Virus genome (UHGV): UHGV-1838449
Length of the DNA stretch: 17,388 bases
Reading direction: 5' to 3' (one strand)
Source: a virus
A program made the position numbers and the translations under genes. Position 1 is the stretch's first letter. Every line of letters begins with the position of its first letter. The notes beneath the pieces were generated by a model, which saw only the letters and a list, made by a program, of their open reading frames with translations, was not told where the DNA came from and ran no database searches. Below are positions 13,685 through 17,388 of this stretch, in pieces.

Positions 13685-13854
13685 TGCGATGTTATCGGTG
13701 CGGTGAATGCAAAGAAGATAACCGCTTCCGACCAAATCAACCTTACTGGAATCGATGGTGTCTCCGGTGTGAAAGAACACCAACAGGGGTGTTACCACTA
13801 CCGCAGGAAAAGGAGGACGTGTGGCGAGACAGCGACGAAGTATCACCGACATAA
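13681..13854 (+). CDS. ninD: NinD-like small zinc-ribbon protein
   Basis: 57 aa, [16 protein letters not shown]...CLRCERTP, two CxxC pairs. Matches my recollection of the lambda nin-region Orf57. ATGA overlap with the upstream stop. Confidence 0.6.
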
Positions 13855-15417: not shown

Positions 15418-15602
15418 ACGCCACAATTCAAACGATACCAGAGCTTCTTATCCAGACACGAGGCAATCAGACCGAAGTGGCAAGGATGCTTTCCTGCGCA
15501 AGAGGAACAGTGCTCAAGTACAACCGAGACAGCAAAGGCGAGCGTCATGTAATAGTTAACGGCGTCCTGATGGTCACGCCAGGAAAAAAGGGAAGACGAT
15601 GA
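15414..15602 (+). CDS. ninH: NinH-like small DNA-binding protein
   Basis: 62 aa; KTIPELLIQTRGNQTEVARMLSCARGTVLKY parallels lambda NinH (KTIPDMLVEAYGNQTEVARRLKCSRGTVRKY). Confidence 0.65.
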   Translation: MNATIQTIPELLIQTRGNQTEVARMLSCARGTVLKYNRDSKGERHVIVNGVLMVTPGKKGRR

Positions 15603-16117
15603 GCATAAGAGAGCTAAACCTCACCAAAGAACAGCACGATTGGCTGAATGGCTGGCTTGAGCTGTGGGGCGCATGGGTTTATTCAGGTCGTCTGGAAAAG
15701 CGCATGAGCAGCGTAATAGCGAAGTTCATGGAGAGCGTAGAGCCGGGAAGAGTTATGACAAGGCCAATGTGTAATGATGATGATGGAATGTTGATTTCTC
15801 AGGTCGTCGATTCCGTCATGTACATTGACAAGAAAGCCTTTGGCATCCTCCTCAGCTACTACGCTCATGGTTCATCTAAGCGAGCAATTGCATCCTACTA
15901 TCACGCGACTGCAAAGCCACGCAAGATGTGTGGACGTGGTGGCGAGGGATGGAGAAAACCTTCACTGGCAACCTGTAGAAACGAAATTGACGACATCCTG
16001 AAAGCGTCGTTATTTGTTTTGTACCAACCAATGCAAAATGCTTTCAAAATGCGTAAACGTGTTGAGAAAGTTAAGCATGTTGCTGTTAAAAGCCTTGACA
16101 TGCAATTAGCCATTTAG
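15599..16117 (+). CDS. Q: Late-gene antiterminator Q (phage 82/933W-type family, not lambda Q-type)
   Basis: 172 aa. LELWGAWV...PMCNDDDGMLISQVV...LLSYYAHG parallels my recollection of the 933W/82-type Q family. Last nin-region gene, immediately followed by a strong promoter and a short terminated transcript. Confidence 0.7.
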   Translation: MSIRELNLTKEQHDWLNGWLELWGAWVYSGRLEKRMSSVIAKFMESVEPGRVMTRPMCNDDDGMLISQVVDSVMYIDKKAFGILLSYYAHGSSKRAIASYYHATAKPRKMCGRGGEGWRKPSLATCRNEIDDILKASLFVLYQPMQNAFKMRKRVEKVKHVAVKSLDMQLAI

Positions 16118-16124
16118 CCATAAT
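16095..16124 (+). promoter_or_regulatory. Late promoter pR-prime
   Basis: -35 TTGACA (16095..16100), 17 to 18-nt spacer, -10 CATAAT (16119..16124), overlapping the last codons of Q. Confidence 0.55.
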
Positions 16125-16165
16125 ATTCACATATGCTGCTGCTTTTGCATTCAGCAACCATCACA

Positions 16166-16190
16166 AGCCCACCTCCTGTGGGCTTTTTTG
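16166..16190 (+). terminator. tR-prime intrinsic terminator (target of Q antitermination)
   Basis: Hairpin AAGCCCAC-CTCCT-GTGGGCTT followed by TTTTTT, about 35 to 60 nt downstream of the pR-prime -10. Confidence 0.7.
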
Positions 16191-16311
16191 CATTCGCGTG
16201 CAATCAAAACAAGAGTCTTAGTGATATGGGCCTGAGATATGGTGGTGGAAACATCGCTCCGCTCTTGGCTGTCATATCTACGCGAACAGGCTCTATCCCT
16301 AAGGTAAAGCG

Positions 16312-16824
16312 ATGAAAGAAATAAAATTAACGCCAGAAATGGTGCTTTCTGTTGTTGATTACAATCCATCATCAGGCGACTTTCACTGGAGATGGAGGCG
16401 GGGAAGAGAGAGGACCACTTTGACATGGAACTCTCGTTTTGCTTTCAAGAAATGCTCATCAATAAATTCTGATGGGTATTTAATGATTATGATTAATGGT
16501 AAAGCATACCCTGCTCACAGACTGGCATGGTTGATTGTTTATGGCACCATGCCCGATGGTTTTATTGATCACATCAACAGGGTAAGAACAGATAACCGGA
16601 TATCAAATCTTCGTCTTGTCACTCATTCCGAAAATATGCAGAACAGGAAAATTCAGAAGAATAATAAATCTGGATACCGTGGCGTGTCTTGGGATGCTAA
16701 GTACGGGAAATGGAGAGCAAGAATTAATGCGTCTGGAAAGTGTATTAACCTTGGATACCATGATACTGCCGAACTTGCCGCTGCGGCTTTTGAGGCCGCC
16801 AGAATGAAATATCATACCGTTTAA
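16312..16824 (+). CDS. HNH endonuclease with C-terminal AP2 DNA-binding domain (homing-endonuclease-like)
   Basis: 170 aa. HNH core DHINRVRTDNRISNLRLVTHSENMQN and AP2-like SGYRGVSWDAKYGKWRARINASGKCINLGYHDTAELAAAAFEAA. Sits just downstream of tR-prime. Confidence 0.8.
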   Translation: MKEIKLTPEMVLSVVDYNPSSGDFHWRWRRGRERTTLTWNSRFAFKKCSSINSDGYLMIMINGKAYPAHRLAWLIVYGTMPDGFIDHINRVRTDNRISNLRLVTHSENMQNRKIQKNNKSGYRGVSWDAKYGKWRARINASGKCINLGYHDTAELAAAAFEAARMKYHTV

Positions 16825-16836
16825 AGATGTAAGCTG

Positions 16837-16878
16837 CCGTTAGTGACTCTTAAGTTGCAACGGTGGCTTTTTTATTTG
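16837..16878 (+). terminator. Weak intrinsic terminator candidate after the HNH-AP2 gene
   Basis: 5-bp stem CCGTT/AACGG with a long loop, followed 4 nt later by CTTTTTTATTT. Stem is marginal. Confidence 0.35.
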
Positions 16879-17315
16879 CACAACAGGTAAGAGCATTGAA
16901 CCCGCAGACCTCGCGGAATTGGTGAAAGGTGCCGCGCAGTGCTCTTATCGTTGTGGTGAATGCACAGGCTGATGTGTAAGGGCAAGAATCTTTCGCTGGA
17001 TTCGGTGTGGCCACGTAGCCCGCTGTAGGCAGTTGCAGCAAACCGGAGATCAGCACCGGTCGCCACAATCCAAACTGAGCCGTAGCCACTGGCTATCATG
17101 AATTCATCGGTGATAGTTACGCTGCGGCCTTCTACACATGACCTTCGTGAAAGCGGGTAGCAAGAGGTTGCGCTAACAACCTCCTGCCGTTTTGCCCGTG
17201 CATATCGGTCACGAACAAATCTGATTACTAAACACAGTAGCCTGGATTTGTTCTATCAGTAATCGACCTTATTCCTAATTAAATAGAGCAAATCCCCTCA
17301 ATGAAGGGGTAGAGC

Positions 17316-17388
17316 ATGTACCGTATGGACAAAATCAGAGAATGGTTCAGTTACAGCTTCGGAGGACTGACTGCGATGGGTGGCATTC
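17316..17388 (+). CDS. Partial ORF (5' end only, runs off the window), possibly the first late/lysis gene
   Basis: ATG at 17316 with a GAAGGGG site; MYRMDKIREWFSYSFGGLTAMGGI... is Gly-rich and hydrophobic, consistent with but not diagnostic of a holin N-terminus. Confidence 0.3.
   Translation, partial: MYRMDKIREWFSYSFGGLTAMGGI

Follow-up and report, generated by a model that had tools for sequence, protein, structure and literature searches.

Mimics of transfer RNA (tRNA), such as the tRNA-like domain of transfer-messenger RNA (tmRNA), the C4 RNA of phages P1 and P7, the CI RNA of P4, the Y-RNA-like YrlA, the tRNA-like structures (TLS) of plant viruses and mascRNA, are typically matured by RNase P and can be stable. 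An engineered 'tRNA scaffold' for the expression of recombinant RNA has reportedly been devised by Ponchon and Dardel. Genuine tRNA genes are found in the late leaders of the phages 21, Sf6, L and BTP1, in the slot between the late terminator tR' and the holin gene; the genes ileZ-argN-argO of 933W are of the same kind. The DNA studied here, called the window, is a stretch of 17,388 nucleotides (nt) of the virus genome UHGV-1838449, read on one strand. Its interval 16879-17315 is the non-coding untranslated leader of the late operon and lies between tR' and the holin ATG at 17316. The leader contains a tRNA-like element (TLM) in the very slot, between the flanks and on the strand of the tRNA genes of those other phages. 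The best explanation, in which we place moderate confidence, is a late leader with an upstream hairpin (M2) and with TLM as an excised, stable and trans-acting tRNA mimic, followed by a lambda-type 5' untranslated region of the holin gene.

TLM is composed of the following parts, all given in window coordinates:

16952-17068, plus strand: TLM, variant 'type A', with a frame common to four variant types at this locus and to at least 240 viral contigs
16952-16958 / 17061-17067, plus strand: P1, acceptor-like stem of 7 bp with one G.U pair
16959-16961, plus strand: junction AAU
16962-16966 / 16973-16977, plus strand: P2, D-like hairpin of 5 bp, with the loop GGCUGA at 16967-16972
16978-17041, plus strand: variable centre of 64 nt in place of the anticodon arm
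17042-17046 / 17056-17060, plus strand: P3, T-like stem of 5 bp, with the 9-nt loop AGAUCAGCA at 17047-17055
17068, plus strand: A in the discriminator position, followed by UCCA

The family is defined by a P1 of 7 bp, the junction AAU, a P2 of 5 bp with the loop GGCUGA, a variable centre, and a P3 of 5 bp with the loop AG(A/U)UCAGCA that abuts P1. All of these parts are present at 16952-17067, in an intact copy. The 3' strand of P3 adjoins the 3' strand of P1 without a spacer, so both helices form a continuous arm of 7 + 5 bp, which is the acceptor/T-arm geometry of tRNA. The two loops are complementary to each other, GCUGA of the D-like loop pairing with UCAGC of the T-like loop in a 5-bp kissing helix. 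TLM shares with canonical tRNA the continuous acceptor and T stems, a D-like hairpin with a GG loop, and an interaction between the D and T loops. It differs in the lack of an anticodon arm, which is replaced by a variable insert (30-167 nt in the family, the centres being unrelated to one another), in its 9-nt T-like loop instead of the 7-nt T-Psi-C-R-A loop, and in an elbow formed by the 5-bp kissing helix instead of G18-Psi55 and G19-C56.

ARAGORN detects neither a tRNA nor a tmRNA in the window, and no Rfam 15 family, the tRNA model included, matches the window at gathering score or at E<=10. In 23 TLM-bearing loci no Rfam family lies over TLM, the matches being mostly tRNA genes elsewhere in those loci. 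A canonical tRNA gene is rejected on these results and for want of a cloverleaf with an anticodon stem-loop; tmRNA is rejected with neither an ARAGORN nor an Rfam match. TLM resembles tmRNA and other RNase P-processed mimics in that an acceptor/T-arm mimic carries other RNA in place of the anticodon arm, and in its occurrence in phages, but it possesses no sequence or covariance-model match to tmRNA, C4 or YrlA, no tag ORF (open reading frame) and no G3:U70, and YrlA is circularly permuted relative to it. The engineered scaffold likewise combines a conserved tRNA frame with arbitrary RNA in place of the anticodon arm, much as the family combines an invariant frame with a hypervariable centre, whereas TLM is natural, with a redesigned elbow and a payload without an assigned role. 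The known prophage small RNAs STnc100, C4, IsrK, DicF and AgvB/AsxR were rejected as candidates, with no Rfam match in the window, as were the Pas small RNAs (PasA to PasD, located beside holin genes in prophages of enteropathogenic Escherichia coli), whose probes of 23-25 nt (PMC8550237) find no window site with more than 16 matching nt. A literature search by motif sequence and keywords found no description of TLM; it could be among the 10,006 unnamed viral RNA candidates catalogued elsewhere (PMC10690425). TLM would work like a tRNA mimic and is a member of no Rfam 15 family.

The interval had been predicted, from its letters alone, to be GC-rich, free of credible ORFs and possibly a structured RNA, with RNA folding and searches for tRNA and RNA families as checks. 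Its GC content is moderately raised (50.6%, with 55.7% in the first half, 16879-17070, and 46.5% in the second) compared to an average of 45.6% over the window. The ORFs in 16879-17315 are limited to an overlapping minus-strand pair (79 and 75 amino acids) and one of 28 amino acids, none of which matches Pfam at E<=1, and no gene was found here by homology. The prophage of E. coli strain 317 is 100% identical to the window over the queried stretch, with HK629 and JEP4 as close phages, and its PGAP/RefSeq annotation places no feature in the interval; the same is true of most relatives. The region 16825-17320 folds at -187.4 kcal/mol against -150.2 +/- 6.2 kcal/mol for dinucleotide shuffles (z = -5.97, 0 of 100 shuffles as good), hence its structure exceeds chance. 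The original prediction holds: the interval is without a credible gene, it contains structured RNA whose stems are conserved and covary in relatives, and the inverted repeats are conserved.

A protein-coding sequence, or the decayed ninD-like duplicate that had also been proposed, is extremely improbable. The frame CSYRCGEC does exist at 16940-16963 and resembles RCYRCGEC of ninD (13690-13701), with 19 of 22 nt shared, TTATCGGTGCGGTGAATGCAAA against TTATCGTTGTGGTGAATGCACA; in addition, a minus-strand hypothetical protein of 61 amino acids is annotated in one RefSeq genome. However, this is a single genome among the matches listed, of 1,426 matching records, a plus-strand ORF of relatives is interrupted by a TAG in the window, and the ORFs have no Pfam match. 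The likeness to ninD comprises 8 codons only, with a stop two codons further on. The shared bases are those of the M2 3' arm, the P1 strand and the start of P2, and a duplicate of ninD is rejected because RNA pairing in a family of hundreds of phages unrelated to ninD explains the same bases; the likeness is probably a coincidence.

The family extends far beyond the window. The window, CUS-3 and locus L015 possess one frame with unrelated centres of 60, 158 and 75 nt, respectively (counted between the hairpins as delimited there). This frame consists of TGTGGTG-AA-U, a 5-bp hairpin with GGCUGA, the centre, a 5-bp hairpin with AG(A/U)UCAGCA, and CGCCACA, and the hairpin stems vary in compensated ways. 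At least 240 viral contigs of IMG/VR match the two-loop pattern with any centre, among them 187 unique cores. A 14-base pattern scan of genome contigs yielded 120 listed loci, nearly all of them chance occurrences; the only full member is locus L215 of a Rhizobium metagenome-assembled genome, with a closing helix of 13 bp whose sequence is entirely different. Pairs were counted in a trimmed alignment of 78 members, in which the centre is replaced by a linker. Every pair of P1 shows 4-6 pair types here, P2 and P3 also covary, and 94.8% of the pairing cells are paired, compared to 82.0% in shuffles. Covariation is scored at 0.337, with 0.098 for shuffles (none of 500 reaches the observed value) and 0.045-0.110 for slid registers. 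Among 199 unique sequences P1 occurs with 79 distinct strands, and all 8 positions (the 7-bp P1 plus one flanking pair) are paired in 124 of the 199, with shuffles centred on 4-5.

Such covariation bears directly on the view that the locus is an evolutionary relic, made of decayed tRNA genes and 'boundary sequences' kept as recombination joints and devoid of any RNA function, a view that we regard as distinctly unlikely. CUS-3 annotates two boundary sequences here, bsq3 and bsq4, a label reportedly going back to Clark et al. 2001; mosaicism at the locus is high, identical flanks enclosing at least four alternative centres as well as tRNA variants, and the hairpins of the lambda-type leader further downstream show mostly one-sided, uncompensated changes. 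P1, on the other hand, remains paired through 79 sequences, and P2, P3 and three kissing pairs are compensated across phages of Alpha-, Beta- and Gammaproteobacteria. Neutral decay is ruled out for TLM because all these pairs keep pairing by compensation, and the relic view is tenable only for 17064-17290.

A further alternative is a DNA-level element, i.e. a recombination site or small mobile cassette in single-stranded or cruciform form, comparable to attC or to the att sites at tRNA ends. It would account for the swapping of cassettes at the slot, and the ends of TLM are indeed imperfect inverted repeats (TTGTGG..GCTGAT) with variable 'cargo' between conserved ends; the sequence of the P1 3' strand is often found again ahead of M2, e.g. 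CACAAC here. Yet G.U pairs outnumber A.C mismatches in the family (78 versus 26), from which it follows that the late-gene strand is the folding strand: one strand is favoured, namely the transcribed one. TLM is also always co-oriented with neighbouring tRNA genes (63 of 63 tRNA genes within 1.5 kb on the TLM strand, in 264 non-redundant neighbourhoods), and no recombinase gene was seen among the adjacent ORF clusters. Exact 7-mer copies of the P1 3' strand lie upstream in 8 of 209 members and in the downstream control in 7 of 209, by which a target-site duplication was rejected. A DNA-level element is therefore very improbable in our estimate.

The kissing helix changes in concert as well. 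Seven of the eight genuine GGCCGA variants have UCGGC in the partner loop, by which the kissing pair U:A becomes C:G; the pair C:G is replaced by U:A in locus L501, and the P7 copy combines GACUGA with UCAGU, i.e. G:C becomes A:U. Of the GGUUGA variants, one has UCAAC and two retain a U.G pair. Since three of the five loop-loop pairs show double compensatory changes, the kissing helix is supported, with the exceptions given here and further below. A covariance model (R1) built on a seed of 32 members scores non-seed members at 45-65 bits, the non-seed type D copy of L015 reaching 65.6 bits, and finds no match in lambda, P22, Sf6 or the HK75-type element. The loops are invariant from Rhizobium to E. 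coli phages, which suggests a universally conserved host partner of TLM. Position -1 is U in about 60% of the members; 3' of P1 follows an A and then, in about half of the members, C and C, with G in only 6-7%.

Among 50,697 named phage records, 248 match a typical member by blastn, including phages of Klebsiella (73), Pseudomonas (61) and Escherichia (54); further hosts of matching phages are Salmonella, Erwinia, Aeromonas, Cronobacter, Burkholderia and Stenotrophomonas. In the 60 matches listed, the site is unannotated or bears only a protein-coding sequence, mostly a 'hypothetical protein', and the records of HK629 and CUS-3 have no feature over TLM. Upstream neighbours of TLM are Q-type antiterminators of unrelated families, CI/LexA-like repressors and HNH-AP2 genes, and the downstream neighbours include three holin families.

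At the locus itself, relatives carry alternative inserts between tR' and the lambda-type leader, and of 5,426 complete E. coli genomes 1,417 possess some of the interval, only 144 of them at least 80%. The pair tRNA-Asn and tRNA-Thr occupies the same slot between the same flanks in Sf6, BTP1, SPN9CC and many others, and phage L possesses tRNAs at the same position (PMC8022706), in agreement with the original prediction that other lambdoid phages carry tRNA genes in this interval. The window, CUS-3 and L015 represent three further variants of the slot. HK75-type phages carry there a 127-nt cassette with the same P1 as acceptor stem, labelled tRNA-Arg by PGAP. This cassette (L012 924-1050, Eco_70239; L005, HK75) has a canonical D arm, GCUC-AAUGGC-GAGC, and a canonical T arm, GCCGG-UUCGAUU-CCGGC, as well as about 50 extra nt and a possible anticodon arm, AUCGG-CAGCGCA-CCGAU. 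It is missed by ARAGORN, by the Rfam tRNA model at gathering score and by the TLM model, and is treated here as a cassette separate from TLM.

TLM is not confined to lysis loci. In the Stx2 phage WGPS2 (AP012537; L516 2001-2139) it follows cI on the same strand at a distance of about 450 nt, and in 27 IMG/VR loci a CI-like gene lies a few hundred nt upstream of TLM, again on the same strand. The position downstream of cI is the place of rexAB in lambda, so cI-linked TLM could be expressed in lysogens. In P7 (AF503408 72106-72255; L515 2392-2541) TLM is flanked by tRNA-Asn/tRNA-Thr on one side and by terB on the other, within the C1-controlled Op(ban) operon; P1 and RCS47 also carry a copy by blastn, between tRNA-Thr and terB/plp. 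The P7 record has nothing annotated between tRNA-Thr and terB, and in RCS47 a plp coding sequence underlies the match. Because of its presence after cI and in the tRNA/ban operon of P7, a role limited to the cis control of lysis genes is argued against: TLM is a portable RNA module, used in late, immunity and early operons, and not a cis element specific to lysis. The Rfam families Proteo-phage-1 RNA and int-alpA RNA occur elsewhere on TLM contigs (L215 2325-2405, minus strand, and L366 6981-7047, plus strand), without a positional link.

Directly upstream of TLM, and partly overlapping it, lies the second structured part of the leader:

16879-16955, plus strand: hairpin M2, CACAAC-A-GGTAAGAGCA with TGCTCTTATC-GTTGTG (in RNA TGCUCUUAUC-GUUGUG), from the sequence and the minimum free energy (MFE) fold

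M2 comprises 6 + 10 bp with one bulged A and an interior of 44 nt. It includes the long-range inverted repeat noticed at the outset, TAAGAGCA at 16888-16895 and TGCTCTTA at 16940-16947, whose coordinates were exact. Its 3' arm shares 4 nt with P1 in the window, namely those with which the P1 5' strand begins. M2-type closing stems with a variable interior recur upstream of TLM in many viral contigs (environmental), and compensated stem variants include GGTAAGGGTA/TACCCTTACC, GGTAATGACAC/GTGTCATTTCC and GGTAATTGCA/TGCAATTATC; an interior pair changes from C:G to A:T in Eco_70239. In other members, with stems of 12-24 bp, no part of the P1 5' strand is left outside the M2-type arm. Some M2 interiors hold T-arm-like hairpins, e.g. 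GGGTTCGAATCCC. In some contigs (L401 1053-1200, L309 66-180) the P1 3' strand runs into another ACAACAGGTAAGRGC, the start of a further M2, and this direct succession suggests tandem arrays of M2-TLM units.

The overlap of M2 and P1 could indicate a cis-acting leader switch without any trans function, in which M2 and the tRNA-like fold are mutually exclusive and compete for the GUUGUGG strand, the choice of fold tuning read-through, processing or stability of the lysis mRNA. TLM is often found between a Q-type activator and a holin gene, and the overlap, 4 nt here, covers the whole strand in members with stems of 12-24 bp. With only Watson-Crick pairs counted, since P1 is rich in G and U, 26 of 209 members have an upstream stem of 8 bp or more whose end falls within the P1 5' strand; controls give 2-3. 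We nevertheless consider such a switch rather unlikely. Lysis genes are absent from the vicinity of the module where it follows cI in the Stx2 phage or separates the tRNA genes of P7 from terB. The lambda-type leader, mosaic in its own right, places about 250 nt between TLM and the holin. An M2-like hairpin is present by the sequence-motif test in only 64 of 264 neighbourhoods, although 178 of 271 show some long-range stem of 9 bp or more in a looser test. M2 is a recurrent, not a universal accessory, which could compete with P1. The original prediction of a regulatory leader for the late operon is thus partly apt: the RNA does belong to the leader, but the same module also occurs outside lysis loci. 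Its reading as a structured RNA in the slot of tRNA genes was right in spirit, the actual element being more specific.

In the explanation that we favour, with TLM as an excised trans-acting mimic, transcription of the leader would require read-through of tR' by Q-modified RNA polymerase, by analogy with the phages 21 and lambda. Judging from its shape, the tRNA-like fold would be recognised by the tRNA-maturation machinery of the host, with RNase P cutting at the P1 5' end and the 3' end trimmed at the A/C-rich tail. In this way the long transcript would yield TLM as a separate, stable RNA of about 117 nt, which may then act in trans as a tRNA mimic or as a scaffold for its variable insert; the excision would also part the leader from the holin mRNA.

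Several points weigh against this explanation. Both RNase P processing and the stable product are deduced from the shape of the RNA. The tail is ACC-like in a minority only, with ACCA or ACCC in about 15% of the tails, and recognition by tRNA enzymes is not guaranteed because the T-like loop, 9 nt long, is without the T-Psi-C consensus. The patterns by which members were collected fixed both loops and the closing pairs, and the conservation of the loop bases is partly by construction for that reason; loop variants were fetched by a separate search, which gave 22 loci including several false positives, and among them four GGAUGA loci (three distinct sequences) are uncompensated. R1 finds a single copy in the window (16949-17072, 67.7 bits), which is itself a member of the seed. 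No target was found for the variable centre, since its longest antisense matches to nearby phage sequence are no better than those of shuffled centres. Finally, M2 sequesters the P1 5' strand (4 nt here, up to all of it in some relatives) and could block P1 or signal a switch.

As a wider and more tentative proposal, possible rather than probable, TLM may represent a new and widespread class of phage non-coding RNA: a tRNA mimic excised by RNase P, with a kissing-loop elbow and a variable payload, whose target in trans would be some host component conserved universally. It might, for example, decoy tRNA-directed defence or toxin systems, or serve as a natural 'tRNA scaffold' that carries a regulatory RNA, and would be deployable from late, immunity or early operons.

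Downstream of TLM the leader is of the lambda type:

17064-17311, plus strand: lambda-type leader upstream of the holin gene S, 94% identical to lambda (J02459 44936-45181)
17079-17128, plus strand: hairpin GCCGTAGC...GCTGCGGC enclosing CTATCA...TGATAG, predicted from the MFE fold
17160-17197, plus strand: hairpin GCAAGAGGTTG-CGCTAA-CAACCTCCTGC followed by CGTTTTGCCC, with an extended stem at 17160-17187, terminator-like but weak
17213-17253, plus strand: hairpin GAACAAATC...GATTTGTTC, predicted from the MFE fold
17294-17309, plus strand: sdi-like stem-loop CCCCU-CAAUGA-AGGGG, followed by the Shine-Dalgarno-like GGGGUAGAG and the holin ATG at 17316

The core of this leader (17143-17257) is 73-80% identical to P22, ES18 and g341c, and the lambda-type leader is annotated in CUS-3 as the 'boundary sequence' bsq3. 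To our knowledge, the role of the upstream 200 nt of the lambda-type S leader has been established in no phage. The hairpin at 17079-17128 is conserved in the lambda-type group and absent from the P22 group. That at 17160-17197 contains the AGGTTG-CGCTAA-CAACCT hairpin of the original prediction, which does exist, at 17165-17182 rather than 17152-17169, i.e. displaced by 13 nt. Its loop and flanks are invariant in nine phages; the stem 17160-17187 has 34 variants, with most changes one-sided (C.A) and only three compensated. An intrinsic terminator was rejected here, as only 4 U follow (at least 5 are needed), the terminator scan makes no call, and the P22 group is without the U run. The hairpin at 17213-17253 has a 3' arm that is invariant in lambda, P22 and ES18, and the changes of P22 in its 5' arm are uncompensated. 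Because changes in the lambda-type hairpins are mostly one-sided, we make no claim for them, with the exception of the sdi-like one.

This last hairpin, directly before the ATG, is kept with three different sequences: CCCC..GGGG in lambda S, CCCCU..AGGGG in the present holin gene and CCUCACG..CGUGAGG in gene 13 of P22. Translational control of the sdi type is known for lambda S. The hairpin here would sit over the ribosome-binding region of a dual-start holin and fits, by analogy, translational control of that type. The holin start at 17316 is taken from the RefSeq annotation of the identical prophage; the protein begins with MYRM, a dual-start motif, and is of class II (S21-like). The window thus shares with lambda S the leader and a hairpin just before a dual-start holin, but differs in the class of the holin and in the sequence of the hairpin. 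The class II holin gene (17316-17388 in the window) is joined to the lambda-type leader at a mosaic joint no more than 25 nt upstream of the ATG: phages with lambda-family holins match up to query positions 487-494, and phages with class II holins up to 496. In the group of P22, ES18 and mEp234 (L008, which is P22, L009, L010 and L011), AAAAGAAAACCCAG...CTGGG is located about 40 nt upstream of the conserved TTCGTGAA; on the minus strand it represents a hairpin with a U run, terminator-like and facing the late operon.

The features upstream of the interval are:

15599-16117: Q gene, phage-21-type
16095-16124: late promoter pR', TTGACA-18-CATAAT, overlapping the end of Q
16312-16824: HNH-AP2 gene
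16831-16873, plus strand: late terminator tR', phage-21-type (stem-loop and T6), just outside 16879-17315 and marking the start of the conserved leader

Both pR' and tR' were placed by alignment to the annotated genomes of Sf6, HK75 and CUS-3. The tR' of the window aligns base for base with theirs and is paired in the MFE fold. In these three phages CATAAT is directly joined to tagaagGTAAGCTGCCGTT..., their annotated qut/tR' region, and in the window the same sequence resumes only at 16829, after the HNH gene. It is by this alignment that 16831-16873 is recognised as a phage-21-type tR' and the remainder up to 17315 as the leader of the late operon. The HNH-AP2 gene sits in a cassette of about 700 bp (16125-16828), inserted right after the -10 hexamer of pR', which supplies its own initial transcribed sequence (TATGCT versus TAAGCT in phage 21 types) and its own terminator hairpin at 16165-16185 with a U run. 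As the cassette brings this terminator, the late transcript must cross two terminators in series.

The tRNA genes of phage late leaders have long been taken as a supply for decoding codons; the same slot is occupied here by a tRNA-shaped RNA unable to decode. TLM spans lambdoid, P1-like, Stx2, Klebsiella, Pseudomonas and other phages, and is unannotated among the matches listed. It is a compact natural scaffold with a redesigned elbow, and at minimum a new RNA family with strong covariation support, missed by current annotation pipelines. If TLM is a processed tRNA mimic, it asks what phages do with the tRNA shape beyond translation; possible uses are as a processing signal, as a decoy against tRNA-targeting defences, or as a scaffold for small RNAs.

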